Notes: generated by a model from the letters alone, not told the origin. DNA of 23,231 bases from Promethearchaeota archaeon (GCA_016926735.1 JAFGOA010000201.1:1-23231); one strand, 5' to 3'. Positions 3,535 through 23,231 are shown, counted from the first letter of the stretch. Program-made: numbers and translations.

Positions 3535-3583
3535 ACATTATTTTATTTCGATCAATCTTTAAAAATCCCAAGTCTTTTTTTAT

Positions 3584-3903
3584 CATGATTACTCAAGAAA
3601 AACCCTCTTTTTAGAGAATTATTATTTGTGACTATGTTATTAAAACTAATAAAACCTATAAAGTGGTTTATTAAATGATATAAATCATATGGATCGAGAT
3701 CTTAATTCAGCAATTAATGTTATGGTCTCTTTTCTTTTCCTAAAAAAAGTACAGACGTATGATTTCCTATTACATCACCTCTCTATGAACGAAGAATCTT
3801 TCCTAAAGCAATGGAGGGGCTTTCTACAAAAAACAGACCGATCCGTAAGAGATATCGTTGCGTACTCGTAGGAAACCATAACTTTTAGGTTATGTTAGTT
3901 CAC
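3584..3903 (+). mobile_element. Internally deleted IS200/IS605-family (tnpB) element, 320 bp (copy A1)
   Basis: Preceded by TTTAT (3579-3583). Degenerate left end CATGATTACTCAAGAAAAACCCTCTTTTTAGAG; TnpB RuvC-III remnant DRDLNSAINV; right-end hairpin CATAAC-TTTTAG-GTTATG ending TAGTTCAC. Removing it leaves the flanking ATPase frame open across the junction. Confidence 0.85.
3689..3871 (+). pseudogene. tnpB: tnpB C-terminal fragment (RuvC-III motif and tail)
   Basis: MDRDLNSAINVM matches the TnpB DRDxNAAxNI motif; ORF ends just before the right-end hairpin. Confidence 0.85.
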
Positions 3904-6061
3904 CAAATAAAGGATTAATTTCATTTTCAAGATAATCTTCCAATTTTTCTATTGAATTATTTGAGAAATAAGAAATTTGATCAAAGAATTCTATCAAAGT
4001 CTTATTTTTAATTTTTATATTTCTTAAAATCTGTTCAAATCCTTTTTCATACAGATTAATCAGAAAATTAAGACTTTCTTCGCTATACGCTTCATATTTT
4101 TTAATTTTTGTTATCAATTTTGTTAATAAAATTGGCGTTTTTTCTTCCCATATTTCAATAGCAGGATTATACTCAAAAATGGGATTAATATTTATAGATT
4201 TATTAGAATCTATATTAATTTCACTAATAGAAAATACCTTTCTAGTATTATTTGTTCTATTTTTTTTCATTAATATTAAAATATCTAAATCATTTAAACA
4301 CTCTATATTTATATTAAAATGATACATGAATCTATTCATTAGTGATTCTAAAGAGTCTGCATGAATCGTTTGAAATCCTTTTAATCCTGCAGCTAAACAA
4401 TGAAATAATGCTTTTGATTCTTCTTCAGTAAGTATTTCACCCAGATAAATTAAATCTGGGGTTCGATGTAATAATTTTTTGATTTGTTTACTCTTAGTTG
4501 ACTGAGAATGATCTTCATCTTCTAATGAATCTACTGTGTATTTGATTTGGTGTTTATTGTATTTAATTTCATCAAGAGATTCTATAATATTCTCAATGTA
4601 TATTTTTCTATAATCTTTAGGAGTTATAAAATCTAATGCATTTATTAATGTTGTTTTTCCTGAATCCGTTGTACCAACAACGGTAATATTAGATTGTTTT
4701 AAAATGCATAAATAAAGGAAAGCAGCCATTCTTGAATTTAGTGTTTTATTTTTCAATAAATCTTGAATTGTAAAAATATTTTTATTTAATTTTCTTATGT
4801 CTAATGAGAAATTGTAATAATTGATTGGTTCAATATCAATAGCAAATCTACAATAAAAATATCTATTCTTTATTACTAATTTAATACTTGGATTTGAATG
4901 ATCAAGTCTTTTTCCGCTATAAAGTCGAATTAATGTTTTTATTCGTTCAATATCTTCATCATTTAATTTAATAGAGGTTCTACACCTTCCATTCTTTTGA
5001 TGATTAATATATATGGTATCTGTAGGAGAATCTAAAAATATCTCTTCGATATAATCATCTATTAACAGAGGAAAGAGTTTTTCTAAATTTAAAATTTTTA
5101 ATGCAACTATAATTCCAATTCGTTTTTTATTCAATTTAGACAATGTATACTTTTGATCAATATATTTCACAGCTTCAGAATGATAAAAATTAATTAAATT
5201 CTCAATAGAAATGATCTCTTTAACATTAGATAACTCTAAATTTTTATATGTATTATTGATAATCCCTATAAAAAATTCTTTTTTTTTTGTATTATCAAAA
5301 AACTCTTTAACAGTGTATAATTTTTCAATTTCATTTTTTATGCTATAAATTTCACACTGATAAAGTTTGTATTTTACTATATTATATTTATCAGATAAAA
5401 CTCTATCTTTTTCTATAATCTGAATTTTATTTTCTTTTTTATTTAAGTGTAGAGATAAATCTGAGAATAAATATTCAAAAAAGTTATTGAATTTTTTAAA
5501 CAATTCCTTTTTTTTCATATAATTTTGATATTTTGAAATAATAGAAAGATCTGATAAAATATCTAATAAATTTTTAAAATTCAAAATTAGTTCGTGATAA
5601 CAATTTGTACATTGAGATGATGGATTATGATTTGATAGAATTGAATGAATTTCATAGATTAAACAATAAAAAGAGATAGGATTGTAGAGATTACTTTTAA
5701 AATCCAAATTATAGATTGATTTTGATAGAATTGAGCACTTAAATTCATTATAAATACAATTGTCTCGCTTTCTCTCAATCCTCTTGAGGATTTGAAGAAT
5801 TTTTTTTATAAAAGGATAATATTCAAAAAAATAGGAGAGTTTTTTATATCCTATAAGAAGATCATACGATTCTAAATATATTGAAGGTTCCTTTTTCTTT
5901 TTATTATATAAATATTTTGATAAACATGATATACACTCATTACTAAAAATATAATTTGATGAATTTGAGCATTCATTACACTTTATATTAATTATAGAAT
6001 TAGATAATGATTTATTTTCAGATTCTTGATTAATCTGAGATCTATCCAAAATTTCATTCAT
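3890..6061 (-). CDS. Type IV pilus/Tad assembly ATPase (TadA/CpaF/VirB11/ArlI family) with long Cys-rich N-terminal extension
   Basis: Walker A VVGTTDSGKTT, Asp box IYIENIIES, Walker B RTPDLIYLGEI, His box FQTIHADS. Likely start is ATG 6061 (AGAGGAT upstream) rather than TTG 6103. The last codons (GELT*) lie inside the IS right end. Confidence 0.9.
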   Translation of the reverse strand: MNEILDRSQINQESENKSLSNSIINIKCNECSNSSNYIFSNECISCLSKYLYNKKKKEPSIYLESYDLLIGYKKLSYFFEYYPFIKKILQILKRIERKRDNCIYNEFKCSILSKSIYNLDFKSNLYNPISFYCLIYEIHSILSNHNPSSQCTNCYHELILNFKNLLDILSDLSIISKYQNYMKKKELFKKFNNFFEYLFSDLSLHLNKKENKIQIIEKDRVLSDKYNIVKYKLYQCEIYSIKNEIEKLYTVKEFFDNTKKKEFFIGIINNTYKNLELSNVKEIISIENLINFYHSEAVKYIDQKYTLSKLNKKRIGIIVALKILNLEKLFPLLIDDYIEEIFLDSPTDTIYINHQKNGRCRTSIKLNDEDIERIKTLIRLYSGKRLDHSNPSIKLVIKNRYFYCRFAIDIEPINYYNFSLDIRKLNKNIFTIQDLLKNKTLNSRMAAFLYLCILKQSNITVVGTTDSGKTTLINALDFITPKDYRKIYIENIIESLDEIKYNKHQIKYTVDSLEDEDHSQSTKSKQIKKLLHRTPDLIYLGEILTEEESKALFHCLAAGLKGFQTIHADSLESLMNRFMYHFNINIECLNDLDILILMKKNRTNNTRKVFSISEINIDSNKSININPIFEYNPAIEIWEEKTPILLTKLITKIKKYEAYSEESLNFLINLYEKGFEQILRNIKIKNKTLIEFFDQISYFSNNSIEKLEDYLENEINPLFGELT

Positions 6062-6235
6062 ATCCTCTATTTGAAATAAGATATTATAAATACCACACTT
6101 CAATTTTAAATATCAAATAAAGGAACATAGATGGAATAATTTTGAAAAGCCGTAAACTGCTTTATTGAGGTTTATGACAATCAAAAAATTTATTTAATTT
6201 AAAACATTTTCAATTTTAAAATCTTAGTGATAATT

Positions 6236-7255
6236 ATGGGACATCGTAAAAGGTCAGCTCCAAGACGTGGTTCATTAGCTTATCTCCCAAGAAAAAGAGC
6301 CGCACAAATTAAAGGTAGAGTAAGAAGTTGGGCAGATGTAACAGAGGATTTAAATTTTCTTGGGTTTGCTGGTTTTAAAGCAGGTATGACTCATATTACA
6401 TATATAGAGGATCAAGAAAATAGTCCTTATTATGGAAAAGAACTTATGAAACCAGTTACAATAATCGAAACACCTCCTCTCTTATTAATTGGTATACGTA
6501 TATATAATGAGGATGATTATGGTAAATATATTGTAGGAGAAGTTTTTTCAGAGAAATTTAATGCAAATTTAAATCGAGCAATAAATCCTCCCAACTCAGA
6601 GAATTATAATTCAAAATCCATCCAAAAAGAACTTCAAAAAAAGATAAATAAAAGTAGTGAAATTAGAGGTATTTTTCAAACTCAACCTTATAAAACATCA
6701 TTATCTCGAAAAAAGCCAGATATTATTGAAATAAAGGTGAATTCAACAGAAGATCCTCTAAAGGAATTTAAATATTCTATCAAACAATTAGGAAAAGAAA
6801 TCAGAGCTCGTGATGTATTAAATGAAGGAGAATTATTGGATGCTATAGCAGTTACTAAAGGTAAAGGATTTCAGGGGCCTGTAAAAAGATATGGTGTTAG
6901 AAAATTAACAAGAAAGAATAGTAAAGTACAACGTGCTGTGGCATGTATCGGTGCATGGCATCCTGCTAGAGTAAGTTATACAGTTCCTCGAGCAGGTCAA
7001 ATGGGATTCCATCAAAGAACAGAATATCATAAAAGACTTATGTTTATTGGTGAAAATGAGGAAGAGATCAATCCTAAAGGAGGTTTTATTAATTATGGTA
7101 AGATCAGTGGAGATTATATTCTAGTTTTAGGCTCGGTTCCTGGTCCAAAAAAGAGATTAATTAGATTAAGAAAAACAATACGACAAAAAGAATCTTTTAG
7201 TATAAAATCTCCAGAAGTAATATTTGTAAATCGAGAAAGTCAACAACGTAAATAA
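6236..7255 (+). CDS. rpl3: 50S ribosomal protein uL3
   Basis: MGHRKRSAPRRGSLAYLPRKRA, GFKAGMTH, TKGKGFQGPVKR, IGAWHP, RAGQMGFHQRTE; ATG 6236 preceded by GTGAT. Confidence 0.98.
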   Translation: MGHRKRSAPRRGSLAYLPRKRAAQIKGRVRSWADVTEDLNFLGFAGFKAGMTHITYIEDQENSPYYGKELMKPVTIIETPPLLLIGIRIYNEDDYGKYIVGEVFSEKFNANLNRAINPPNSENYNSKSIQKELQKKINKSSEIRGIFQTQPYKTSLSRKKPDIIEIKVNSTEDPLKEFKYSIKQLGKEIRARDVLNEGELLDAIAVTKGKGFQGPVKRYGVRKLTRKNSKVQRAVACIGAWHPARVSYTVPRAGQMGFHQRTEYHKRLMFIGENEEEINPKGGFINYGKISGDYILVLGSVPGPKKRLIRLRKTIRQKESFSIKSPEVIFVNRESQQRK

Positions 7256-7273
7256 TACAAGAGAGGATTTTAA

Positions 7274-8065
7274 ATGGATAAGATAAATGTTTATAATTTA
7301 AAAGGGAATAAAACAGTAATAGTTGAAAAACCAAAAGTTTTTGCATTTAAACCTAGAAAAGATCTGATAGAAATTGCATCAGAAGTTTCTCAAAGTCATA
7401 GAACCCAACCACAAGGAAGAAATAAAAGAGCTGGTCTTAGAAATGTCGCGGTGAGTTGGGGAACAGGCCACGCGATGGCACGGACTCCAAGAATAAAAGG
7501 ATCTGGTTTTTCAACAGCCCATAATGCTGGAAGAGTACCTTATGCTAAAGGCGGTAGAACAACTCATCCAATAAAGGTTGAAAAAAATCTAAATAAAAAA
7601 ATAAATAGAACCGTTAATAAAATATCTATTGCTTCTGCTATTTCAGCAAGTGGAAATATTGATTGGATTAAGAAAAGAGGTCATATAATAGACAAAATTC
7701 CAGAAATACCATTGGTTGTTGATGATAAAATACAAACTATAAAAAAAACATCAAAATTATATTCAATCCTGGAAGATTTAGGTCTAAAACAAGACTTATT
7801 AAGAGCAAAAATTAAAAATAAGAAAATTAGACCTGGAAAAGGTAAGAGAAGGGGTAGAAAATATAAAAATTCCAAGAGTATTTTATTAGTAATTAAAGAA
7901 GATTTTGGTATTGTCCGAGCTGGAAGAAATATTTCAGGAATTGATATTATAACAATTCAAAATTTATCAATTAATGAATTAGCTCCAGGAGGTCTATCTG
8001 GAAGATTAATACTCTGGACACAATCCGCTTTTAACGAATTGAATAATTATGAGGAGATAATTTAA
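7274..8065 (+). CDS. rpl4: 50S ribosomal protein uL4
   Basis: SWGTGHAMARTPR, KGGRTTHP, IRPGKGKRRGRKY, LAPGG..GRLILWT. Confidence 0.98.
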   Translation: MDKINVYNLKGNKTVIVEKPKVFAFKPRKDLIEIASEVSQSHRTQPQGRNKRAGLRNVAVSWGTGHAMARTPRIKGSGFSTAHNAGRVPYAKGGRTTHPIKVEKNLNKKINRTVNKISIASAISASGNIDWIKKRGHIIDKIPEIPLVVDDKIQTIKKTSKLYSILEDLGLKQDLLRAKIKNKKIRPGKGKRRGRKYKNSKSILLVIKEDFGIVRAGRNISGIDIITIQNLSINELAPGGLSGRLILWTQSAFNELNNYEEII

Positions 8066-8066
8066 A

Positions 8067-8330
8067 ATGGAAAAATATTATAAGATAATTAAGAAACCTC
8101 TTGTAACAGAGAAAACATTTGATTTAATTGAAAATGAAAATAAGTTAGTAATTATTGTAAGTAAATCTGCCAATAAGACCCAAATTAAAAAAGCTATTGA
8201 GGGGATATATAATGTTAAAGTTATCAAAATTAATACTTTAATAACTCCAAGTGGCGATAAGAAAGCATTTGTAAAATTACATCCTGATAATTCTGCTCAA
8301 TCAATAGCAATTGATCTTGGTATTTTTTAA
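8067..8330 (+). CDS. rpl23: 50S ribosomal protein uL23
   Basis: IIKKPLVTEK, ENKLVIIV, ANKTQIKKAIE, INTLITPSGDKKAFVKL. Confidence 0.97.
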   Translation: MEKYYKIIKKPLVTEKTFDLIENENKLVIIVSKSANKTQIKKAIEGIYNVKVIKINTLITPSGDKKAFVKLHPDNSAQSIAIDLGIF

Positions 8331-8342
8331 TTTTATTTCTAT

Positions 8343-9446
8343 TTATCTGAAAACATTAATATTTAATTCAAAAAATTGATTTTTATTTATAATTTTAATC
8401 TTATCGAGAGAAATTAATTCTTGAATTCTAATAATATTTTCATAATCAATTGAATCAAAAAATATTAGAAAGATATTATATTTCTCATAATAATTTTTAA
8501 TAATTTTTTTTAATAAAGGTAAATTCATTCTTTGAATCAAAACACATATAATATTTTCATTTATAAGGACTATTTCATCATTAATTTTAAGAGATTTAAT
8601 TGAATTTTTATCCAGTTCCTCTTTAATGTTGGTTATAATATCTGAAAGATTGTGAGATTTATATTTATTACCTAAATAGAAAGTCTCTGTGTAATCTAAT
8701 AAATAAAAATATTCAATATCAATTGATAATCTCCACATGATTAATCCTATTTTATTAATCGTTAGTTTTTTTTTCTCTAAGATTTTACTATTAAAAAAAT
8801 TATTTATTTCAAGATCTAATAATAGATTGTTTTTACTTTTCTGTTGAAATTCTATACAATAAGGATATAGAATTATTTGATTATTCCTATTTATTTTAAA
8901 ATTGATTATGAGGATTATATCATTGAGAAGGTTTTTTGATAAATTAACAAATGTATCAAAAAAAGATTCTTTTTTTGAAATGAGTTCAAAATTTATTTTA
9001 AAATAATTTATAAGTGTATAATTATCATTGTTTGTTCCTTGATTATTCTTTTTTTTATTATTATGGAATTGAATAAGATCTAATGAACAATTTACTAATT
9101 TTAAGAACTTATTTTCTAATTCTTTTTCTTCTAAAAATATTATTGAATTATTGATTCTAGTTAGTTCATTATATATAATACTATGACATTTTAATATTGT
9201 ATTTTTATTTAAATCCTTGAAGCACATTATTATCAAATTCTTATTCTCAGAATCTAGTTGAAGAGAATAATAATTAAAATATCGTTTTTTAAGAAAATAG
9301 TTCATATATGGGATAATTGATTCGATAGATTTACAGGATAATAGAGAAAATCCAATAAAAGTTTTCTTTTTATTAGTGCTTTTATAAAAAATAAGATTAT
9401 GATTTATTATAAATGATAATAATCTGAATTTTCCTTTATTTACCAT
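8343..9446 (-). CDS. Hypothetical protein
   Basis: 367 aa open frame directly downstream of the signal peptidase on the same strand; no motif recognised. Confidence 0.6.
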   Translation of the reverse strand: MVNKGKFRLLSFIINHNLIFYKSTNKKKTFIGFSLLSCKSIESIIPYMNYFLKKRYFNYYSLQLDSENKNLIIMCFKDLNKNTILKCHSIIYNELTRINNSIIFLEEKELENKFLKLVNCSLDLIQFHNNKKKNNQGTNNDNYTLINYFKINFELISKKESFFDTFVNLSKNLLNDIILIINFKINRNNQIILYPYCIEFQQKSKNNLLLDLEINNFFNSKILEKKKLTINKIGLIMWRLSIDIEYFYLLDYTETFYLGNKYKSHNLSDIITNIKEELDKNSIKSLKINDEIVLINENIICVLIQRMNLPLLKKIIKNYYEKYNIFLIFFDSIDYENIIRIQELISLDKIKIINKNQFFELNINVFR

Positions 9447-9469
9447 GAAATTATCAAATTTTTTTTTTT

Positions 9470-10090
9470 TTATGATCTTGATATTTTTTCAATTTTAATT
9501 TTATATTTTAAAATATGTAGAATACAAACTATTATTCCAATTACTATAATCGTAATTAAAATATGAATGAAATAAATTTTAAAATATCCAATAAAAGATA
9601 TTTTTATACTTACTATTCCTATTATTTCTGATTCAGGAATATATATACCATCGGTATAATTAATTTGAATAGTTATAGAATTATTATTTTCATTGATAAT
9701 CTCATAAGCTCCATCTGGTGCTCTATTATTATCACCTTTAGTTAGAAATAACCAAGTATCATTTATCAATATTTTATTAATTGCTCTATGAATTATAATC
9801 GTATTATTATTAAGATTATTCCAAAAAATTGGATTGAGTCCTTTACGATAATAATATTCAGGACCCTTAATTATTAAGATATCTCCATTTATATCATCTG
9901 CAATAATTTTTTCTGAAGATTTCTCGCCCTTTATTACTAAATCTCCTATTTTTAAAGAAGGTTCCATAGATTTATCCATTATAACAAACAAAGAATTTTT
10001 AAAACATAAAAAGGGTAATAAAACTATAAAACAAATGATAATAACACTTAAAATACCTTTTTTTTTTATTATTGTCTTTTTTAATGACAT
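9470..10090 (-). CDS. sec11: Signal peptidase I, Sec11/S26B type
   Basis: N-terminal TM; catalytic Ser in KSMEPSLKIGDL; His in IIHRAI; TKGDNN..PD; C-terminal TM. Confidence 0.9.
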   Translation of the reverse strand: MSLKKTIIKKKGILSVIIICFIVLLPFLCFKNSLFVIMDKSMEPSLKIGDLVIKGEKSSEKIIADDINGDILIIKGPEYYYRKGLNPIFWNNLNNNTIIIHRAINKILINDTWLFLTKGDNNRAPDGAYEIINENNNSITIQINYTDGIYIPESEIIGIVSIKISFIGYFKIYFIHILITIIVIGIIVCILHILKYKIKIEKISRS

Positions 10091-10167
10091 AAAATACTAT
10101 CTATTTTTCTTTTTAAAAATTCCGAAGTTTTTTATCAAATTGATTTAATTTTTTTAAATTATAAGTA

Positions 10168-10359
10168 GTGACCTACATATGACATAAAGGTTGTGTTTTC
10201 CTACGAGTAGCGAGCCCTTAATCTTTTGTTCACGTTTTAATAACAAAAAAGATAATGGTTTTGCTTAAAAAGAAGAAGATAAGGATAATTTGTTGATTTT
10301 TTTCTCTCTACTCAATTCATCCTTTCTTTTAAAGAAGAGATCTCCTTAAGTGTTCAAAG
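10168..10359 (-). mobile_element. Ends-only IS200/IS605 derivative (PATE/MITE-like), 192 bp (copy A2)
   Basis: On the minus strand: TTTAT (10364-10360), then left end CTTTGAACACTTAAGGAGATCTCTTCTTTAAAAGAAAGGATGAATTGAGT. Right end TACTCGTAGGAAAACACAACCTTTATGTCATATGTAGGTCAC aligns with the copy A1 right end TACTCGTAGGAAACCATAACTTTTAGGTTATGTTAGTTCAC. No tnpB motif recognised inside. Confidence 0.8.
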
Positions 10360-10464
10360 ATAAAATATAGTTCTCTATTTTTCTATTTATAAAAAAAAAA
10401 TAAAAGGAGTTAATCATTTAAATATAAATATAAAGAAGAAATATTTTTATAGAGTGAATTTTAT

Positions 10465-10656
10465 TTGAGTAAATTTGAACGACATAAAAAATCAGAGGAA
10501 TATGTTTATCCTCACAAACATTGTAAAAAATGTGAGGATATGATTATAGAATCATATACCTATTGTCCAAAATGTTATAAGGAACTCCTTGAACGTAAAA
10601 ATAAAAAAGGCTTTTTCAAAAGAATTTTTTCACGAAAAAAAAAAAATAAAATCTAA
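10465..10656 (+). CDS. Small Zn-ribbon protein (DUF2116-like)
   Basis: PHKHCKKC...YCPKC followed by basic tail; TTG start with GTGA upstream. Confidence 0.7.
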   Translation: MSKFERHKKSEEYVYPHKHCKKCEDMIIESYTYCPKCYKELLERKNKKGFFKRIFSRKKKNKI

Positions 10657-12359
10657 ATATTAAGTCTTTTTAATAACCATTCTTTATCTAACATAGATAG
10701 AAATGATCCTAATCTTGGACCATTTTTTTTCCCAAAAATAATCAGATAAATTGCTTCAAATAACTTTTTTGGGGATATTTTTAATTCTTCTGAAGCAATT
10801 GTAAAAATTTTATTTTGAATTCCATCTGCATTAAGGTTTTCATTTTTTATCAAGAATTGTCTAAACATCCTAATACCTAACTTTTGATTGTCTTGGATTC
10901 GATCTAGTATTTCATTATCAATTTTAATTGGTATAGAAAAAAGATCTAATTTTCTCATTATCTCTTTTTTAGTCTTAATATCACTTGTTTCTTCAATAAT
11001 TTTTTTTACTTCTTCAATCCAATGGTAAGATCTTTCAAGTAATATTTTAAATTCATCGGCAGAAATTATTTTATCAAAATTATGATCTTTCATATATTTG
11101 ATAGATTGTTTGTAAAGAATATCTTCTGGAATTATATTTTGAATCTGAGTTAAGAAAGATAATAATTTTAAAGAAAGTCTTTGAGGTTTAATTTTAGGAA
11201 TTTCTTTGACATGGGTTAATGGATAAGTATATTTTAAAAACTTATTCTTAGCTTCATCATCTAACTTAATTAATCCAAAATAAACATTTTCCATCTTCTC
11301 ATAATAATCATAATATTGCGATAATTCTTCTATTCTAAAAGCTATATGTTTATTTGGATTAGTTTTTAAAATTATTGCTCTATAGATTTCAGGTTCTGCC
11401 ATATTAAGATATTTTTCAGGTGTAAATACAATTCCTTTTGAAGTTTTCATATCATAATTACCTAGTCTTAGCCATTCATATGATACTTTTACAGGCCCTT
11501 CATATTCATATAATTTTTGACATAATTCTAATCCCGTATCATAAGCACCCCCCCTAACACTATGATCTTTGCCAGCAGGTTCACAAGTTGTTTTCAACAT
11601 AGCCCATTTAGCTGGCCAATCAATTCTCCAATTTAATTTTAATCTTCCACCCCAGATAGATACATCTCCGGAGTATTCACAATATTCACAATTATATGAT
11701 ACAGTTTCCTCCTTTTTATTATATTTCTGAACTCGATTTGGGACGATGTTCCCTGCTTTATCTTTACTTTGGATTCTATTACATTTCTCACAAATAACCA
11801 TCGCAGGCATCCAACTTTTTTGCATTTTATTGAACTTATCTTTATTTATATCATCTAAAGTAGGTAATATATATTTTTTGAGAATATTTTTTATAAGCTC
11901 ATTATTTTCCAAAGCAATTTTAATATATTCTTGCATTTTTCTTTGCTTATATAATTCATGAGTCCATAAAATCTTCAATTTAATACCAAATTTTGGAAAA
12001 GTTTTACTTAATTCATTTCCAAAATGATGAGCATAGCTTTCACATTTACAACTTTTAAAAGGACATGGAATTAAAGCAAATGGTTTACCAATATGTTTTT
12101 TTTGGAAATCTTTTGGAATATATATTGGAAATCTTTTTGCAGCATCTAAACTATCAAAAAATAAGATATTTTTTACATTATAACCACGATTTTCGAGAAT
12201 TCTTCTTAATGCATCGCAAATAAGTATTTCTCTTAAAATTCCTAAATGAATATGACCAGAAGGAGTTTTTCCAGTAGAAAGAGTAATATCTTTAACAGAA
12301 CGATTAATTATTTCTTCAGCAATTTCTTCTAACCAATGAATTTGAAACTCTTTATTCAT
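10653..12359 (-). CDS. lysS: Lysyl-tRNA synthetase, class I
   Basis: HW near N-terminus, TPSGHIHLG (HIGH-like), KLNWRIDWPAKW, EPAGKDH, MKTSKG (KMSKS-like), GPRLGSFL. Confidence 0.97.
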   Translation of the reverse strand: MNKEFQIHWLEEIAEEIINRSVKDITLSTGKTPSGHIHLGILREILICDALRRILENRGYNVKNILFFDSLDAAKRFPIYIPKDFQKKHIGKPFALIPCPFKSCKCESYAHHFGNELSKTFPKFGIKLKILWTHELYKQRKMQEYIKIALENNELIKNILKKYILPTLDDINKDKFNKMQKSWMPAMVICEKCNRIQSKDKAGNIVPNRVQKYNKKEETVSYNCEYCEYSGDVSIWGGRLKLNWRIDWPAKWAMLKTTCEPAGKDHSVRGGAYDTGLELCQKLYEYEGPVKVSYEWLRLGNYDMKTSKGIVFTPEKYLNMAEPEIYRAIILKTNPNKHIAFRIEELSQYYDYYEKMENVYFGLIKLDDEAKNKFLKYTYPLTHVKEIPKIKPQRLSLKLLSFLTQIQNIIPEDILYKQSIKYMKDHNFDKIISADEFKILLERSYHWIEEVKKIIEETSDIKTKKEIMRKLDLFSIPIKIDNEILDRIQDNQKLGIRMFRQFLIKNENLNADGIQNKIFTIASEELKISPKKLFEAIYLIIFGKKNGPRLGSFLSMLDKEWLLKRLNI

Positions 12360-12448
12360 AAAACTTTCACTATTATAAAGATTGTATTTATTGAGTTAAT
12401 GAATACATTTATTTATCATTTTTGATTTAAGACTATAGTGAATTTAAA

Positions 12449-14272: not shown

Positions 14273-14329
14273 TTTCAAATTAATTAAAAATTATATAAAA
14301 AAAGGAAAAAAATTGTAGAAAAGAAGGTA

Positions 14330-15316: not shown

Positions 15317-15379
15317 ATCAATTACTATATTTCATAATTTTATTAAATTTAATCTTTAGAATTGTGAAAACTATTTATC

Positions 15380-15520
15380 ATTTTCCTAGTTGAATTTAAT
15401 TGAACTACCATTCCTTAAAGGGAATGAATTCCTAATTCATCGACTGCTGCCTCAATTAAATGATGTCTTACACAATCTCCAAACGCGTGAATTCCCATAG
15501 TCCCTACGGTATTAAGAGTA
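15380..15520 (-). ncRNA. Putative TnpB omegaRNA/reRNA scaffold plus flank-derived guide
   Basis: GC-richer right-end region with GGGAATTCACGCGTTTGGAGA...CGATGAATTAGGAATTC and terminal hairpin, typical of IS605 right ends. Predicted guide TTAAATTCAACTAGGAAAAT. Boundaries approximate; expression not shown. Confidence 0.6.
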
Positions 15521-15918
15521 TCTAACGTGATAATTGTGATTCCTTTTTCTTTTCACATCCGGATTCCTTCTTAATGAATATTGATAGAAGCATTGACATC
15601 TCTTTTGTGTTTCTTTTATAAACGAATAATCCCGCAATGCTAGGCAATCTTTTTTGTATTTTTTATAGATGTTAATTCTTTCTTTCAACTTTTTATTATA
15701 CACGAATCTGCAATGTCCGAAATTCATCAAAAAAATGCTTTTTGCTCGGTATTCGGATGGATTCGTATTTTCATCGCATGGTTACTCGACATAGATAGAC
15801 TTCTATAGAAGAGAACATTATTATGATATGGGATAGAATAGAATCTGTATATTTCATTTAAACCCTAGTATTCAATTCATCTCCTCCCTAAAGAAGGAAG
15901 TTTTCTTGAATTGTTATG
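15400..15918 (-). mobile_element. Internally deleted IS200/IS605-family (IS1341-like, tnpB-only) element, 519 bp (copy B1)
   Basis: Minus strand: TTTAT (15923-15919); left-end hairpin CAATTCA-AGAAAA-CTTCCTTC-TTTA-GGGAGGAG-A-TGAATTG; tnpB N-terminal HTH joined to RuvC-III remnant; right-end hairpin CATTCC-CTTTAA-GGAATG ending GTAGTTCAA. Confidence 0.92.
15466..15792 (-). pseudogene. tnpB: tnpB pseudogene (frameshifted, central part deleted)
   Basis: ATG 15792 MSSNHAMKIRIHPNTEQKAFF, frameshift in the T7 run (15735-15729), then LMNFGHCRFVYN (IS605 OrfB HTH). In another frame HKRDVNASINIH* (RuvC-III), and further on the tail TVGTMGIHAFGDCVR. Confidence 0.9.
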
Positions 15919-15984
15919 ATAAAATTAAATAAAAAAAATATTGATTAGTTTAATCTAAACTTAAATAAATTAAACTAAGTAATG

Positions 15985-16163
15985 ATACTCCTTAATTTCC
16001 ACTGCAATATAACTAAATAAAAAAGAATTTTAGATCTAATTTCTAATTAATAATTAATATTATATACTATTTTGCTTTATTTTACTGGGATCCATTTATA
16101 TTATTATTATTATTAATATTTTTTATAATAATTTGTTATTCTGGAGTGGAAATTAAGGAGTAT
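15985..16163. mobile_element. MITE with terminal inverted repeats (possibly IS630/Tc1-mariner type, TA target)
   Basis: ATACTCCTTAATTTCCACT (15985-16003) and AGTGGAAATTAAGGAGTAT (16145-16163) are a perfect 19-bp inverted pair with imperfect inward extension; AT-rich non-coding interior. Confidence 0.7.
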
Positions 16164-16169
16164 ATAATA

Positions 16170-16988
16170 TTACAAATAAATTCTTAATAAATCATCAGAC
16201 TCAAATAATAAAAACTCAGAATAAGGAAATTCAAGACTCAAATAATTTTGTAATTTGATTAGAGTTAATAAAATTATATTATGATAGGATAAATTGATCA
16301 TGTCTAATCCTATTTCTTTTCCATAGGTTATATATTTGTGATTTGTATTGCATGAAATATAACAATCACATTTCTTCTTTTCTGCTTTTTTTAAATAGAG
16401 AATATTGTTTAAATATCCTCCAACAATACATATTTTTTTAAGTTCTTTATTTAGATTACCTGAATAATATATTTCATTCATATTTAAATTAGTCTTTATT
16501 CTTTGTAGTAAAATTTCTAATGTAAATGACTGTTTTTTATCATTTGGATAATATATTGGAGAGCATAATCTTCCTATAGGAATAATTTCATTATTATAAT
16601 TCTTTATACTAAAAACATTTTCAATTCTTAAGCATAATATCTTTGATATAGTTTCTGATATTCCTTCTTCAGAACTAATGAAAGGAGAACCTAATATGAA
16701 TATATTTATTGGATATCTTGATAATAAATTCAATTTATTTATTAAAGTCTTATCAAAATTATTAATTGGTGAATTAATGATTCCATGATATGATAAAATA
16801 AGATCAATTTTATGTTTTATAGCATAATGTATTACATCTAAATTCAGATCTACCGTCAATAAAATTTTTTTTATAATTTTATTTTTTTTTTTTTCACCAT
16901 ATTGTATTCCATATAACTCTCTTTTTTTTTTAAAAATTTTTGGAGAAATATGATTTTCTATCTCTAGCAGGATTTCATTTAAAAGCAT
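16170..16988 (-). CDS. Nif3/YbgI-like (dinuclear metal centre hexamer) family protein, divergent
   Basis: YGIQYG, IKKILLTVDL...AI....DLILSYHG, IGRL, KKICIVGG, CDCYIS: Nif3 architecture; several canonical metal ligands appear substituted. Confidence 0.8.
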   Translation of the reverse strand: MLLNEILLEIENHISPKIFKKKRELYGIQYGEKKKNKIIKKILLTVDLNLDVIHYAIKHKIDLILSYHGIINSPINNFDKTLINKLNLLSRYPINIFILGSPFISSEEGISETISKILCLRIENVFSIKNYNNEIIPIGRLCSPIYYPNDKKQSFTLEILLQRIKTNLNMNEIYYSGNLNKELKKICIVGGYLNNILYLKKAEKKKCDCYISCNTNHKYITYGKEIGLDMINLSYHNIILLTLIKLQNYLSLEFPYSEFLLFESDDLLRIYL

Positions 16989-17139
16989 AATATTAGAACA
17001 ATTTAGGATTGTAAAGTTAAAAAGAATTTATGAAAAAAAAAAAAAAAGTCTCTGATGGTTTTTCAAAAAATTGAACTGTTTTATTATTTTAGAGATAAAA
17101 GTTGAGTTTATAAAGATTAAGAATAAAATATAGTGAAAT

Positions 17140-17340
17140 ATGAAATTTAGAGAAAAAATTACTAAGATCAAAAAAAAGATTAAAAAATTCTTTATTGATG
17201 AATTTGGAGGAAATCTTGTAGAATATGCACTTTTAATTGGATTTGCATTATTTATATTTTTTATTATCTTTAATATAATATCTTCAATTATAGATTGGAC
17301 ATTAGGGCTCACAGATGATTTTTTTGGTCTCACAGGGTGA
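17140..17340 (+). CDS. Flp/Fap-type pilin (Tad pilus major pilin-like)
   Basis: 66 aa; basic leader, KKFFIDEFG/GNLVEYALL with Glu+5 Tyr+6 Flp motif, then hydrophobic helix; GTGA SD-like motif upstream. Confidence 0.85.
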   Translation: MKFREKITKIKKKIKKFFIDEFGGNLVEYALLIGFALFIFFIIFNIISSIIDWTLGLTDDFFGLTG

Positions 17341-17700
17341 TCATGTTATAATTTTATCATAATCTAGTTCAAAATGGAATTTATTTTTCCATTCTTCTAA
17401 ATTTTCAAAAAGAATATCCCTATCAATTTCTAAATATTCAAGAAAATGATTTAATTGAATACTTTTTACTCCTTTTAAAATTTTTTTTATCTTATCTTCA
17501 ATTATTATTAAATTAGGTTCTCTCTTTTTTCTTGATCTTAGTTCCCTTAATAATTCAAAATTATTACTATTATTAAAAAAATATTGAACAATATTATTGA
17601 TAACAGCAGCTTGAGTTCTTCCAAAAACTCCAACTAAGTCATCAATCATATCCATATATATTTTACTGAGAGTAACCGTGGTTCGTTTTACATCTGTCAT
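17341..17700 (-). CDS. Ribbon-helix-helix (CopG/MetJ-like) DNA-binding protein with C-terminal extension
   Basis: KRTTVTLS beta-ribbon, helix A, G-R-T turn, helix B (QAAVINNIVQYF). Confidence 0.75.
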   Translation of the reverse strand: MTDVKRTTVTLSKIYMDMIDDLVGVFGRTQAAVINNIVQYFFNNSNNFELLRELRSRKKREPNLIIIEDKIKKILKGVKSIQLNHFLEYLEIDRDILFENLEEWKNKFHFELDYDKIIT

Positions 17701-17759
17701 TGTTTTAAAATAAAAAAATTTATTCTTGATTTTAGAATATTTTTCTTAATATATATTTT

Positions 17760-17778
17760 TATGTTAATCTATGTTAAT
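17760..17778. promoter_or_regulatory. Direct repeat TATGTTAAT x2 at 10-bp period; candidate operator upstream of the RHH gene
   Basis: TATGTTAAT-C-TATGTTAAT, 60 bp upstream of the RHH start. Confidence 0.35.
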
Positions 17779-17855
17779 AATGCATAAATAAGCATCATTT
17801 ATATATGAAATTGATTTAATTAATATTATAGAACTTATAAAAAAGAATAAAATTC

Positions 17856-17880
17856 AAAATGTCGAAAAATTGTCGATTTT
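17856..17880. promoter_or_regulatory. TGTCGA x2 repeat; candidate operator upstream of the wHTH gene
   Basis: AAAATGTCGAAAAATTGTCGATTTT: two TGTCGA at 11-bp period in otherwise AT-rich DNA, about 25 bp before the start codon. Confidence 0.4.
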
Positions 17881-17902
17881 AGAATAAAATGGAGGAAAAA
17901 TT

Positions 17903-18160
17903 ATGGCTAACAATATTTTATATACTAAATTTATGGATGAAAATTTTTTATTATCTCCCATCCAAAATAATCTTATAAGACTTTTAAAAAATGATGGGCC
18001 ATTAACACGAAAACAAATAGTAAATCAATTGGATACCCCTAGAACTACGGTTTTTGATAATTTAACAAAATTGCAAAAAAGAAGAGTTGTAGAAAAATTC
18101 TCTAGAAATAATGGAAAAAGAGGACGACCAAAGGTATATTGGAGAATTAAAAATAACTAG
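17903..18160 (+). CDS. Winged-helix transcriptional regulator (TrmB/MarR-like)
   Basis: LLKNDGPLTRKQIVNQLDTPRTTVFDNLTKL....VVEK......RGRPKVYW; GGAGG SD. Confidence 0.9.
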   Translation: MANNILYTKFMDENFLLSPIQNNLIRLLKNDGPLTRKQIVNQLDTPRTTVFDNLTKLQKRRVVEKFSRNNGKRGRPKVYWRIKNN

Positions 18161-18161
18161 A

Positions 18162-18178
18162 TTTTTTTCTTTTTTTTT
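18162..18178 (+). terminator. Oligo-T archaeal terminator candidate
   Basis: T-rich run interrupted by one C immediately after the wHTH stop codon. Confidence 0.45.
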
Positions 18179-18336
18179 AAATTTTATGATATCGATATAT
18201 TATTCAATTTATTATAGAAATACGATTTCTAAATATAATTATATTATTTTATTTTAGTCTGATTTCATAATAATTAAATTTAAAAGATTTCAAAAGATCT
18301 ATTGTTTAATTTTATTAAAACATTTCTGGATATAAG

Positions 18337-18912
18337 ATGGTTCTTATAGAATATAATGGAAAAAAACCAATTATAAGTGAAAATGCTTATGTCTCCCCTC
18401 AGGCTACACTAATAGGAGATATAAAAGTAAATGATAATGTAATCATTTGGCCTGGAGCTATAATTCGAGCTGAAAGTTCACAAATCAGTATAAGTGAATA
18501 TACCACCATATTCGATGGAGTTATATTATTGACAAGGTCATCTAAAAGTTCTATACATATTGGTAGATATTGTATATTAGATTCAGGAGTTACTATATTA
18601 GGATGTTTTATGGAAGACTATGTTCAAATTATGGAGGGAACTATGATTTTTGAAGAAACATCCATAGGAGAAGGATCTGTCATTTTAAATAATAGTCAAG
18701 TACCTCCTGGACTAGTAATTCCCGCTAGATCCGTTATGAGGGGTGTACCTGTTGAATTAATACGAGAACAAACTAGAAATGATGTTTTAGAACAAAAAGA
18801 AAGAGCTCATTATTATTCTAATCTATTTACAAAAATTAAAAATCATATGCCTAATGCTCAAGGATATATGCTTTCTTTTTCTGATTTTATGAAATTTATG
18901 TTGGAAAAATAG
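18337..18912 (+). CDS. Gamma-carbonic-anhydrase-like left-handed beta-helix protein, lacking Zn-binding histidines
   Basis: YrdA/Cam-like N-terminus (GKKPIISENAYVSPQATLIGDI...IWPGAIIRAE), hexapeptide repeats, VPPG..IP..SV..GVP, C-terminal helix with A..Y. Confidence 0.85.
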   Translation: MVLIEYNGKKPIISENAYVSPQATLIGDIKVNDNVIIWPGAIIRAESSQISISEYTTIFDGVILLTRSSKSSIHIGRYCILDSGVTILGCFMEDYVQIMEGTMIFEETSIGEGSVILNNSQVPPGLVIPARSVMRGVPVELIREQTRNDVLEQKERAHYYSNLFTKIKNHMPNAQGYMLSFSDFMKFMLEK

Positions 18913-18940
18913 AAAGAAAATGATAAAAAAAAAAAATAAA

Positions 18941-19828
18941 TTATATTTTAAAATTTAATTTTTTTACTATATCTTTATACCTAGAACGTAGAGTAACTTC
19001 AGTAACTCCAACTAGACTAGCAATTTCTTTTTGAGATATTTTTTTATTATAATTTTTACAAATAAAATAAAGAGCACCTGCACATAATCCTTTAGGATCT
19101 TTACCACTTATAGAATAATTTGATGTAAAACTCTTTAAAATTTTAATAGTTGAGTTCTCTGCCTCTGTATTTAGACCTAATTCTGCAACATAACGGGGAA
19201 TGAGAGAAATTGGATCGGTTGAAGGTACTTTTAAATTTAATTCACGTATAATTGTACGATAACATCTTCTTACATTTTTTGCATTTATAGATGATTCTTC
19301 TAATATTTCTTGTAATGTTCGTGGAATTCCCCTTTCCCTACAAGCAAAATATAAACAAGCTGCAACCATACCATTAATAGATCTTCCCCTTAATAATTTC
19401 TTTTTAAAAGCATCAATGTATATCCTGATTGCGGTCTTTTTTACATGTGAAGGAAGATTAAGATTACTCCCTATTCTTTTTAACTCTGTTGTTGCAATCA
19501 GCATATTTCGTTTATCCCATGTCATTCTAGAATTCCATTTTGCAGCTCTCTTTAAATCTGGACTTTTTATATTAGTTTTATCAATAATTGTACTCAATCC
19601 CATATCTGGAAGTAGTATTGAGATTGGTGAGCCTGTTCTTTCTCTCCTTTCTTTTTCATTTTTAGTAAAAGCTCTTTTTCCACTATGAGCAACATCTACT
19701 ATTCTCTCACTGACAACTAACCCACATTGGCTGCATACATTTTCTCCTTTCTCTTGAATTGGTATGATCTTTCCTCCACATTCTGGACAAGAACTTGATA
19801 ATAGACTTATATCTGATTTTACTTCCAT
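18941..19828 (-). CDS. tfb: Transcription initiation factor IIB
   Basis: Zn ribbon CPECGG...VCSQCGLV, RAF...RERTG, LLRGRS, PRTLQEI, GKDPKGLCAGALY, GVTEVTLRSRYK; ATG 19828 preceded by GGTGA. Confidence 0.97.
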   Translation of the reverse strand: MEVKSDISLLSSSCPECGGKIIPIQEKGENVCSQCGLVVSERIVDVAHSGKRAFTKNEKERRERTGSPISILLPDMGLSTIIDKTNIKSPDLKRAAKWNSRMTWDKRNMLIATTELKRIGSNLNLPSHVKKTAIRIYIDAFKKKLLRGRSINGMVAACLYFACRERGIPRTLQEILEESSINAKNVRRCYRTIIRELNLKVPSTDPISLIPRYVAELGLNTEAENSTIKILKSFTSNYSISGKDPKGLCAGALYFICKNYNKKISQKEIASLVGVTEVTLRSRYKDIVKKLNFKI

Positions 19829-20097
19829 TATTTTCACCCTTAACTATTTATCATTAAAAATATTAAATTTATTAATGTATAAATGATTCAACCCAAGTAA
19901 TGATAAACTTACGTAATCGTGACTGATTAAAAGTTACCCGATGCAAATGATCTATATTTAATTCTAGTATTTAAATCTTTGCTTTTTCTTAAAAGAACTA
20001 TTAATTATATGAAAAAAAAAATTATATAGGTCACATCCAAATTGAAATTTAAAATTCAAAGGATATTAAATATATATTTTTCTAATATCTTAAGATA

Positions 20098-21483
20098 ATG
20101 AATATAATAGATGATTTTGATATTGAATCCCTAATAATAAACTTTTTAGAGTCAAAAGGAATTATAAAGGCATGTCTACTCTTTAAATTAGAAAAATGGA
20201 TGATAGAACATTATTCAAAAAGATATAAATTTACAAGAAAAGATATAAATAAGAGCATTATCTCACTTTTAAAAAAAAAAAGAATCAATATAATAATCCT
20301 CCCAATTTTTAAAATTACATGGAGGGTTAAAGAATTGAATCATTTGAAATATTTAGAAGATGGAACTTATCTTACAAGAGTAATTAAAACAAAAATGAAT
20401 AGTTTAGAACAAAAGGATTTTAGTTCTAGAAAAATTGATACAAATAATGACTATAAAATCAATAAATTAATCCAAAACTTTCTTGAATTAAGAGGAGAAA
20501 AAAGAAGAAAAATAATTCTCACTCTCTCCACAAATAATAACTCTTTAGATATTTTTGATAATTTTAAAGAAAATTTTTATATAAAAACATCTAATAATCA
20601 CATCCCCTTTTGTGAAAAAATAAAAAATAAAATCAAAATTCCTCTAAAAGAACAAGAAAATTATCAATTAATAATATATAAGTATAGAAAAAAATACATG
20701 TGTTTTTATGTTACCATAATAGAAGCAATTCAAAATATTCTTTTTTATTTAACTTCTCAAAAAAAAAAACCATCGAATTACAAAATGAAAATAAGTGATT
20801 TTACAACAAAATTTGCATTTTATTGTGATTCATTTGTTAACAGTGATTGGATTGATTTAAAACCAAATTCCTACAGATGGGAGTCCTTTTTTAAATATTA
20901 TAATATTCCAATATCAATAAATCTATTGTTTAAAAATATAAAATTTACTGGGAGAACTTTTGAATTACATTTAAAATTTAATTATGAAATAAAAATTAAA
21001 AAATATGCGAAATTAACTATACAAAATCTTAAAAGATTTGGATATTCAATAAAAAAAAAAGATATGGAGACCTTCTCTATTGGATATACTCATAATGCAT
21101 TTATTCCATGTTCTTCAATAGAATATTTTTATTTTTGTGGAAAATATTTTTTTTATTATCATCTTTTTCTTATATTTCATCATTCATTTGCCTATATCAA
21201 AAAAGAATATCCTCTTTGTAAATTTTCTCGAACAGATAAAGATTTATATAAGATATTTTTACCAATTGCAAAATTAATATCTAATTTTAAAGAAAATCAA
21301 CTGAATAGGAATATAATTTTTAAATATTATACAAAAAATACTGAAGAACTGGAGATAATCTATAATAAATTTCTTCTACCATATATAAAACCAATAGAAA
21401 AAAAATTATATAATTATTTTTTAATAAGAAGTTCATTTATTAAAAACCCAAACAATAATTCCATAAAACCAATTGCTATCTAA
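20098..21483 (+). CDS. Hypothetical protein
   Basis: 461 aa open frame; possible N-terminal helix-turn-helix-like segment; no motif recognised. Confidence 0.55.
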   Translation: MNIIDDFDIESLIINFLESKGIIKACLLFKLEKWMIEHYSKRYKFTRKDINKSIISLLKKKRINIIILPIFKITWRVKELNHLKYLEDGTYLTRVIKTKMNSLEQKDFSSRKIDTNNDYKINKLIQNFLELRGEKRRKIILTLSTNNNSLDIFDNFKENFYIKTSNNHIPFCEKIKNKIKIPLKEQENYQLIIYKYRKKYMCFYVTIIEAIQNILFYLTSQKKKPSNYKMKISDFTTKFAFYCDSFVNSDWIDLKPNSYRWESFFKYYNIPISINLLFKNIKFTGRTFELHLKFNYEIKIKKYAKLTIQNLKRFGYSIKKKDMETFSIGYTHNAFIPCSSIEYFYFCGKYFFYYHLFLIFHHSFAYIKKEYPLCKFSRTDKDLYKIFLPIAKLISNFKENQLNRNIIFKYYTKNTEELEIIYNKFLLPYIKPIEKKLYNYFLIRSSFIKNPNNNSIKPIAI

Positions 21484-21558
21484 AAAATAATAATTCTTTT
21501 CAAATTATTGTTTATTATTTTTGGGGTTTTTATATCTATTTTAAAAAAAAAATATAAA

Positions 21559-23124
21559 ATGATCAAGAAAGTTCTATTTATCCAACCATTCTCTCTTATA
21601 GACGAACATTTGTCTAATATATTATTAACATGGCCTATATATTTGGAAAATTATCTTAGATTCAAATGTTCGAATTTAGAATTTGATATTTTATATTTAC
21701 CTATAGAACAAAAAAAAAAGAACATAAACATAAATGCCTATAGTAAAGATCAAATGAAATTATTTGAAATTCAAATGAATAATTTAATTTCAAAATTAAA
21801 ATTTGATATTGATGATAAAACAATAATCTGTATATCCTGTACTTTTAGTTCTTTAGTAATACCAACAAAATGGGTTGTTAGATTTTTTAATCGATATTTT
21901 CATAGAGCTATTATAATTTTAGGTGGGATACATATCTCGGTTTTGAATAAAGATTATTTAGATGATAATCTACATATAGATTATTTTATTCAAGGAGAAG
22001 GGGAAGCCCCTCTCTATGATCTTATAAAACGAGACTTAGGAAAAAGAAAAAATACTTATCTAATAAAAAATGAATTATTATATAATCTAGATGAATTACC
22101 TATTCTTAATCTTTCAGAGCTTTCTATAATTAAATACATAAGATATTCCTCCAATTTATCTATTTCTTTAAGCAGGGGGTGTCCCTTTAATTGCCATTTT
22201 TGTATTGAAAAAACATTATCATGCATAAATAAAGATATCAGACGATGGAGAGTCTTCTCACCTTCTCGGGCATTTACTGAAGTAAAAAATATGATAGAAA
22301 CAGGTGAAGAATATGGTATTAAAGAATATGGATTTATAGACAGCATTTTTGGATTGAATAAAAATTGGGTAAATAAATTTTTAGATCTTTATAATTTTGA
22401 GGATTATAAGCCTATTTGGGTTGAAACAAGATTGGATATAATGAATGAAAAATTAATTACTAAGCTATGTAAAAAAAGATTTTATAATATGTACGGATTA
22501 GAAAGTTTATCTCCGAATATTTTAAAGATTATGAATAAGACTAATAATTCAAAAAAATATTTAGATAAGTTTTGGAATATATTAGATATTCATAAAAAAT
22601 TAGAACATACATGCGCAATAAATATTATAATAGCTCACCCTGGAGAAACAAACCATTCTCTAAAAATGACATTCAAAAATTTAGAGAAAATAACGATAGA
22701 AGATAATGAAGATAATATATACCTAAACATTAGATATTATCATCATTTTCCAGGTACATATATTTATAATCATCAAAATGAATTTAAGGAAAGATATGGA
22801 ACGATATTTTATCCTATTTCAAAAGATTGGTGGAATTCTAACAATTTATCTATTCAAAGATTTGCACCAATGTGTATTAAACCATCAACAAAATTATCCC
22901 TAAGAACATCAATGAATATGTTCATAGAAAATTATTTAAGATTAAATAAGTATAATTTGGAAAAATTAAAAAAAAATAAACTGGATCCGTTCTCTCGTCT
23001 TCAAAAAGCAATTATTATAAAGAAAACTAATAGTAAATTAATAGGTTTAGCGAATGAATTTCTTAATTTCTTAGACTTTTATCATGACAATTCAAGAACA
23101 CTCCCTTTTTTAGGGGGGAGATGA
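21559..23124 (+). CDS. B12-binding radical SAM protein
   Basis: KKVLFIQP start, IILGGIHIS and GEGE (cobalamin-binding domain), SRGCPFNCHFC (CxxxCxxC), GLES, HPGET, PGT. ATG 21559 preferred over TTG 21508. Last 13 residues come from the IS left end. Confidence 0.92.
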   Translation: MIKKVLFIQPFSLIDEHLSNILLTWPIYLENYLRFKCSNLEFDILYLPIEQKKKNININAYSKDQMKLFEIQMNNLISKLKFDIDDKTIICISCTFSSLVIPTKWVVRFFNRYFHRAIIILGGIHISVLNKDYLDDNLHIDYFIQGEGEAPLYDLIKRDLGKRKNTYLIKNELLYNLDELPILNLSELSIIKYIRYSSNLSISLSRGCPFNCHFCIEKTLSCINKDIRRWRVFSPSRAFTEVKNMIETGEEYGIKEYGFIDSIFGLNKNWVNKFLDLYNFEDYKPIWVETRLDIMNEKLITKLCKKRFYNMYGLESLSPNILKIMNKTNNSKKYLDKFWNILDIHKKLEHTCAINIIIAHPGETNHSLKMTFKNLEKITIEDNEDNIYLNIRYYHHFPGTYIYNHQNEFKERYGTIFYPISKDWWNSNNLSIQRFAPMCIKPSTKLSLRTSMNMFIENYLRLNKYNLEKLKKNKLDPFSRLQKAIIIKKTNSKLIGLANEFLNFLDFYHDNSRTLPFLGGR

Positions 23125-23231
23125 ATTAAATTGTAGGTTTTAAATGAAATATACTAATTCTATTCTCTCCTATATCATAATAATGATTTCATCTATACAC
23201 TTCTATCTATGTCGAGTAATCATTCGATGAA
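23083..23231 (+). mobile_element. Left end and tnpB start of an IS200/IS605-family element (copy B2), truncated by the window edge
   Basis: TTTAT at 23078-23082; ungapped manual alignment to the reverse complement of 15770-15918 gives about 128/149 identities; left-end hairpin CTCCCTT...GGGGGAG; ATG 23209 MSSNHSM matches B1 MSSNHAM. Confidence 0.92.

Follow-up and report, generated by a model that had tools for sequence, protein, structure and literature searches.

Probable internally deleted IS200/IS605-family elements, inserted after TTTAT and in part carrying omegaRNA-like right ends, in a Promethearchaeota archaeon

The concept of palindrome-associated transposable elements (PATEs) originates from haloarchaea. 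Gene-less, PATE-like elements also lie beside the ISGst families of Geobacillus stearothermophilus, where they often encode omegaRNAs that would need TnpB in trans (Meers et al., 2023, doi 10.1101/2023.03.14.532601); a paper on circular archaeal omegaRNAs (PMC12558985) contains nothing about gene-less elements. Here we analyzed a complete 23,231-bp contig (C22) of a Promethearchaeota archaeon (GCA_016926735.1, JAFGOA010000201.1:1-23231), referred to below as the window, which contains four tnpB-derived elements, named A1, A2, B1, and B2. An earlier note, made from the sequence alone, had read these elements as a deletion series that keeps the guide-RNA end and may act as a repertoire of guides. 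According to our analysis, they are probably non-autonomous, internally deleted derivatives of IS200/IS605-family elements, similar to PATEs or to miniature inverted-repeat transposable elements (MITEs), and fall into two related subfamilies. The proposed deletion series did not hold; the four instead arose independently and differ in age and subfamily. What the window contains are relics and by-products of an active transposon population and not a host-selected set of guide RNAs.

The genome to which the window belongs (G000) is metagenome-assembled and consists of 238 contigs and 3.88 Mb with 26% G+C and an estimated contamination of 4.8%. The gene content of the window is archaeal in type, including a long L3, a class-I LysRS, and an RLI/ABCE1 protein. 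The smallest contig of the assembly measures 2.5 kb and many contigs stop within the repeats studied here, so that collapsed repeat interiors remained unassembled. Three congeners (G001, G002, and G003) were used for comparison, of which G003 is the nearest, with 8.5% divergence from G000 at four-fold degenerate sites.

All four elements were confirmed, by sequence and by nhmmer, to stand immediately 3' of TTTAT and to possess the left-end hairpins and TCAC or TCAA termini attributed to them before. The E-values of the window copies ranged from 1e-10 to 1e-15 for left ends and from 4e-9 to 4e-14 for right ends, and from the genome-wide count only 0.25 left ends would be expected in 23 kb, where four were found. 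The left ends share one layout, in which about 10 nt are followed by (C/T)TCAAGAA, a hairpin, and a GATGAATTGA-like sequence. At the right termini, A1 and A2 have a hairpin followed by GT(A/T)AG(T/G)TCAC, while B1 has GGTAGTTCAA. The division into two subfamilies stood as well: A1 and A2 have a common right-end type, and the left ends of B1 and B2 are 86% identical across the 155 nt available. The coding content was also as described, with helix-turn-helix (HTH) and RuvC-III remnants in B1, RuvC-III only in A1, and nothing in A2. No Rfam family matched the window at gathering thresholds.

A1 is an internal-deletion derivative of 320 bp (3584-3903, + strand), with its TTTAT target at 3579-3583 (+), read directly and adjoining the 5' end of the element. 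In it, a short left end of about 55 nt is followed by an indel region of 44 nt and then by the final ~230 nt of an A-family tnpB element, ending in TCAC. A residual tnpB frame of about 60 amino acids (3689-3871, +), detected as an open reading frame (ORF) and by tblastn, runs from the RuvC-III motif DRDLNSAINV to the stop codon and is 60% identical to residues 373-435, the last 63 amino acids, of an intact TnpB of G001 (tblastn, E 6e-16); searched alone against Pfam, this frame gave no match. The right end (3754-3903, +) forms a nearly complete, putatively omegaRNA-like structured scaffold, recognized by the covariance model R1 described below (140 bits, E 6e-29). At the junction of left end and tnpB remnant, a 44-nt AT-rich stretch (3651-3694) is missing in the G003 orthologue, by insertion here or deletion there. 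The right end also contributes to a neighboring gene, as positions 3890-3903 provide the last four codons and the stop of a T2SSE-like ATPase ORF (3890-6103, -).

A2 (10168-10359, -; TTTAT at 10360-10364, -) is a protein-less remnant of 192 bp, in which an A-family left end resembling that of contig C61 is joined to only the final ~45-50 nt of the right end, terminating in TCAC; no coding remnant was found in it. B1 (15400-15918, -; TTTAT at 15919-15923, -) is a B-subfamily deletion derivative of 519 bp that consists of a left end, an HTH remnant (15650-15730; PF12323, E 2e-6), a fused RuvC-III piece reading HKRDVNASINI, and a B-type scaffold of about 120 nt ending in TCAA. Both coding remnants are frameshifted. 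The same deletion recurs at C212:2-453 (82% identity over 451 nt), and B1 is a member of a deletion derivative with at least two copies. B2 (23083-23231, +; TTTAT at 23078-23082) is a B-subfamily left end truncated by the contig end, with 86% identity to B1 and 95% to C212. Its first part (23083-23124) supplies the final codons and the stop of a radical-SAM ORF (21508-23124), and the end of this ORF differs in G003, which is devoid of B2.

The genome-wide population that had been supposed from these few copies was found. Iterated nhmmer profiles detected 41 left ends and 29 right ends of the two subfamilies in G000. At least eight nearly identical A-subfamily left ends, and likewise several A right ends, are located at contig ends; the A subfamily is a recently active multi-copy element. 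At least five near-identical B-type right ends are found at contig ends too. In at least 12 cases a left and a right end are no more than 600 bp apart, delimiting protein-less miniature elements (minis) of about 290-580 bp, three of which (C69, C78, and C13, named after their contigs) have one common internal structure. TTTAT was present exactly and in register at 28 of the 41 left ends compared with 4% expected (P ~2e-29), and with at most one mismatch at 37 of the 41. The ends are asymmetric, with subterminal hairpins and no terminal inverted repeats: the left hairpin is followed by GATGAATTGAG and the right hairpin by GTAGTTCA(C/A), and compensatory changes occur in both. Beyond the terminal TCAC or TCAA of the right-end hits in G000, the flanks are mutually unrelated.

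Comparison with the congeners gave the relative ages of the insertions and direct views of their target. A1 has an orthologue at the same site in G003 (L095). A2 is likewise at the same site in G003 and is absent from G001 and G002, and B1 is absent from G001 and G002; the intergenic DNA of these two genomes is too diverged for the exact empty sites of A2 and B1 to be read. In G003, contig breaks interrupt the region corresponding to B1, and also the C16 locus. B2 is missing from the orthologous site of G003, which continues uninterrupted after GACTTTTTT, and therefore is a recent insertion. Where G000 has the minis C69 and C13, the sites of G003 are precisely empty and read TTTAT|flank (C69) and TTGAT|flank (C13) without duplication. 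The reverse case was observed too, as G003 has A-type insertions where G000 is empty, after TTTAT| on C133 and after TCTAT| on C116; one further G003/G000 pair (C229/C50) yielded no clean junction. From the precise filled and empty pairs (C69, C13, C133, C116, and B2), insertion takes place 3' of the motif without target-site duplication. It follows that protein-less minis moved in trans after G000 and G003 had split, with TTTAT as the target. This bears out the mobilisation in trans that the earlier note had proposed, as does the deletion common to B1 and the C212 copy; the 28 left ends and the filled and empty pairs likewise agree with its prediction of TTTAT as target and presumptive transposon-adjacent motif (TAM). 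A1 and A2 are old, fixed, immobile single copies, and B2 is a recent insertion.

To build a model of the right-end RNA, 18 A-type right ends from full-length copies and minis were aligned. RNAalifold on all 18 recovered only part of the structure, as degenerate copies were included; refolding without them gave a model of 33 pairs that covers about the last 130 nt of the A-type right end. Pairing was found in 86.8% of the cells of this model, compared with 35-49% in slid-partner controls. Both-sided changes occurred at 14 pairs, and the observed score was reached by none of 500 shuffles. Helices 1-4 overlap the region coding for the TnpB C-terminus in full-length copies, and compensatory changes preserve them in the non-coding minis, as an omegaRNA scaffold would predict.

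The covariance model R1, built from the A-type scaffold, matched 31 times in G000 and 16, 134, and 32 times in the three congeners. Intact copies scored 160-175 bits, and the minis C69, C78, and C13 keep 32-33 of the 33 pairs. A1 keeps 29 pairs. In A2, which scored 31 bits, the match is confined to about the last 45 nt and the terminal hairpin is broken. B1, belonging to the other subfamily, matches R1 at the terminal hairpin only, but its own B-type right-end region of ~120 nt is complete, and the last hairpin of this region shows compensatory changes. The idea that the elements keep the guide-RNA end is thus correct for A1 and B1 and wrong for A2. Across the genome, seven of the eight deletion classes retain at least the whole scaffold, although no more than about the final 50 nt should be required by TnpA.

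The decay of the old copies was followed between G000 and G003. A1 differs from its orthologue by 14.5% and A2 by 19.8%, about twice the four-fold-site and intergenic rates. In the flanks of the window (L095, L120, and L132), a site that is G or C in at least one of the two genomes is about nine times as likely to differ as an A/T-only site, and at four-fold positions the two classes differ by 38% and 3.9%, respectively. The substitution regime is very strongly AT-biased and raises the apparent divergence of any G+C-richer insert. When the elements were stratified in the same way, they differed by 35.5% at G/C-class sites (four-fold sites 38%) and by 4.6% at A/T-only sites (four-fold sites 3.9%). 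A decay of A1 and A2 faster than neutral was therefore rejected, since the excess vanishes on stratification; it appeared because the elements are G+C-richer within a genome under strong AT pressure.

Within A1, the scaffold is 19% diverged from G003, compared with 13% for the left end and 12.5% for the middle. A lower value (9%) was obtained for the last 43 nt, and the final 14 nt of these double as the last codons and stop of the adjacent ATPase-like gene. Two further minis shared with G003 have scaffolds that are 18.9% (C17b) and 16.8% (C180) diverged compared with 8.5% at four-fold sites, again with equal class-stratified rates. In all, the decay of four of the five old copies shared with G003 matches the rate of four-fold sites. 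A1 and A2 evolve neutrally, scaffold included, and a working guide-RNA repertoire in the window is not supported, the A1 scaffold being no better kept than the rest. Scaffolds that decay as fast as the interior had been named in the earlier note as speaking against its reading, and these copies behave in this way.

These results can be brought together in one scheme. Full-length elements contain tnpB, integrate on the 3' side of TTTAT with no duplication of the target, and close with a subterminal hairpin followed by TCAC or TCAA. Internal deletions give rise to minis in which both ends are kept, and these are moved in trans, probably by a Y1 TnpA. Derivatives with a right-end scaffold of about 130-150 nt may be kept in place by TnpB supplied in trans, which would explain why the scaffold is kept in nearly all deletion classes. 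Selection among elements during their mobile phase, giving way to neutral decay after fixation, best accounts for scaffold retention.

Several observations weigh against this reading. The first concerns the transposase. In G000, neither a PF01797 search nor tblastn with the TnpA of the congeners (best E 0.85) gave a Y1 TnpA to which the recent insertions could be ascribed. The absence of TnpA from the organism does not follow, because the assembly drops contigs below 2.5 kb and breaks in repeats; the transposase of G000 may be unassembled or recently lost, although B2, C69, and C13 inserted after the split from G003. In G002 and G003, a canonical tnpB is immediately preceded by the gene of a 141-aa Y1 TnpA, and the left-end hairpin there is of the same design.

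The second observation concerns the nuclease. The cognate A-family tnpB is represented in G000 only by a pseudogene with two stops (C61:1-1175, -) and by open fragments at contig ends. The search for intact partners that the earlier note had advised thus failed for tnpA and for the cognate tnpB in G000, but yielded intact TnpBs of other subfamilies there (366-455 aa) and an intact cognate in G001 (L106:1533-2837, -), a protein of 434 aa with HTH (PF12323), OrfB (PF01385), and TNB (PF07282) domains.

The third observation is the C78 mini (G000:C78:195-492, L007). Compared with its orthologue (G003:C426, L151), its scaffold differs at 6 of 143 positions (4.2%; 4 of 63 in the G/C class), while the remainder differs at 21 of 151, with the spacer at 9.5% and the left end at 13 of 67 (19%). 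A scaffold better kept than its own left end and spacer is not predicted by pure neutral decay. The TAM position reads TTTTT in both species, the mini precedes a 444-aa ORF by about 100 nt, and its flanks are unusually similar (2.5-2.8% divergence). The conservation of C78 could reflect constraint or gene conversion, and we regard it as a lead rather than a finding.

Exchange between copies is evident at another locus. The C212 mini (G000:C212:16255-16545, L005) and its orthologue (G003:C520, L175) correspond from the left end through the spacer and ~45 nt into the A-type scaffold. At a shared AGGAATCA they switch, and the right end is A-type in G000 and B-type in G003; both orthologues end in TAGTTCAA and continue into identical flank. 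C212 is a right-end swap between subfamilies, by recombination or conversion.

The earlier note had also allowed for a catalytically dead partner TnpB. In the A-family TnpB the RuvC-II motif reads IIVGKL, with Gly aligned to the canonical Glu; the aspartates of RuvC-I and RuvC-III are retained, as is the zinc finger. Large TnpB clades with the same Gly replacement, a compensating Glu being predicted, have been described and their enzymes are viewed as active (Altae-Tran et al., 2023, PMC10691335). A dead partner was rejected, since Gly for Glu corresponds to this published rearranged type and the family is expanding; given this expansion, the A-family TnpB is presumably active. Nor does the protein resemble TldR, which is recognized by loss of the RuvC catalytic residues together with transposon ends: only the RuvC-II Glu is replaced, and the family is mobile.

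Among the alternative explanations, the one that survives best regards the nuclease-less cassettes as a dispersed functional guide-RNA repertoire, in which each copy would use its own flank as guide with TnpB provided from elsewhere, being retained through homing or for a host-level purpose. The principle is accepted for PATEs, intact TnpBs of other subfamilies are present in G000, and both the whole scaffolds in seven of eight deletion classes and the intact, covarying scaffolds of young mobile minis are in line with it, as is the contrast within C78. However, the A1 scaffold has diverged and A2 is without one, most of the shared old copies (four of five) change as fast as four-fold sites, neither a cognate intact TnpB nor TnpA is assembled in G000, and selection among elements explains the scaffolds of young minis without any host function. 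We therefore consider such a repertoire unlikely. A narrower version, to which we give slightly less credence still, is that a minority of minis such as C78:195-492 are kept after immobility as omegaRNA genes under purifying selection and serve the Gly-type TnpB, with right ends exchanged between subfamilies as at C212.

It is more improbable again that a few immobilised minis of the C78 type were domesticated as stand-alone guide RNAs for a TnpB-derived regulator or nuclease with a fixed guide, in the manner of TldR. C78 would suit such a role, with its TAM mutated in both species, a left end decayed in G003, a scaffold 96% conserved, and flank conserved over about 100 nt at that distance upstream of an ORF. 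Yet it is a single locus in which the flanks are unusually similar as well; the G/C-class difference between scaffold (4 of 63) and spacer (6 of 20) is borderline once the five shared copies are allowed for; gene conversion between copies does occur, as the differing right-end subfamilies at C212 illustrate; and the aspartates and zinc finger kept in the A-family TnpB give no hint that it is a dead repressor. An assembly or binning artefact, or the ends of another transposon class (an IS607 serine recombinase or a DDE-type MITE), might be thought of in a fragmented genome with the contamination given above and with B2 at a contig end, but has next to no likelihood, as A1 and A2 lie contig-internally, have conserved archaeal genes on both sides, and recur at the same sites in a congener that was assembled independently. 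In addition, asymmetric ends with subterminal hairpins, a constant pentanucleotide on the 5' side, and an unduplicated target are the signature of IS200/IS605.

Non-autonomous IS200/IS605 derivatives under selection while mobile thus remain our preferred explanation, and what they add can be stated briefly. They define a proliferating IS200/IS605 family in an Asgard genus, with a putative TTTAT TAM, a scaffold model, and a TnpB with a Gly-type RuvC-II, that reaches at least 134 right ends in one congener; the A-family is the most expanded TnpB family of the genus. The precise empty sites in a sister species are direct comparative evidence that gene-less minis move in trans. The family could be of interest to those who mine compact RNA-guided nucleases or trace the ancestry of TnpB and Fanzor near the root of eukaryotes. 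The accepted picture is unchanged, in that fixed minis decay neutrally and omegaRNA-bearing PATEs have already been published. The idea of omegaRNAs acting with TnpB in trans is likewise in print (Meers et al., 2023); the host, the motif, and the family are new, not the principle.

Set against the known systems, the elements come close to PATEs: their ends resemble those of tnpB-bearing elements of the same genome, they contain no intact gene, they occur in many copies, and they need TnpA in trans. The right end, too, seems still to bear an omegaRNA scaffold that would require TnpB in trans. Unlike the PATEs of Geobacillus, they reside in an Asgard-type host, have TTTAT as target, and belong with a main-subfamily TnpB in which Gly replaces the RuvC-II Glu; the window copies A1 and A2, moreover, are old insertions that have become fixed and decay neutrally, and the scaffold of A2 is gone. 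With IS608 and ISDra2 (PMC8612924) they have in common, as far as sequence comparison can tell, insertion on the 3' side of a short motif that would also serve TnpB as TAM, subterminal hairpins, a right end of the TCAA or TCAC kind, a scaffold overlapping the 3' end of tnpB, and a flank that would act as guide. They differ from these elements in that the G000 assembly contains no tnpA, that the motif is TTTAT instead of TTAC or TTGAT, and that the family is known here from sequence alone. The partner protein, finally, is like those of the RuvC-II-rearranged clades (RIIr, PMC10691335), a likeness drawn from alignment: the A-family TnpB has Gly at the RuvC-II Glu, keeps the two aspartates and the zinc finger, and belongs to a family that is proliferating.

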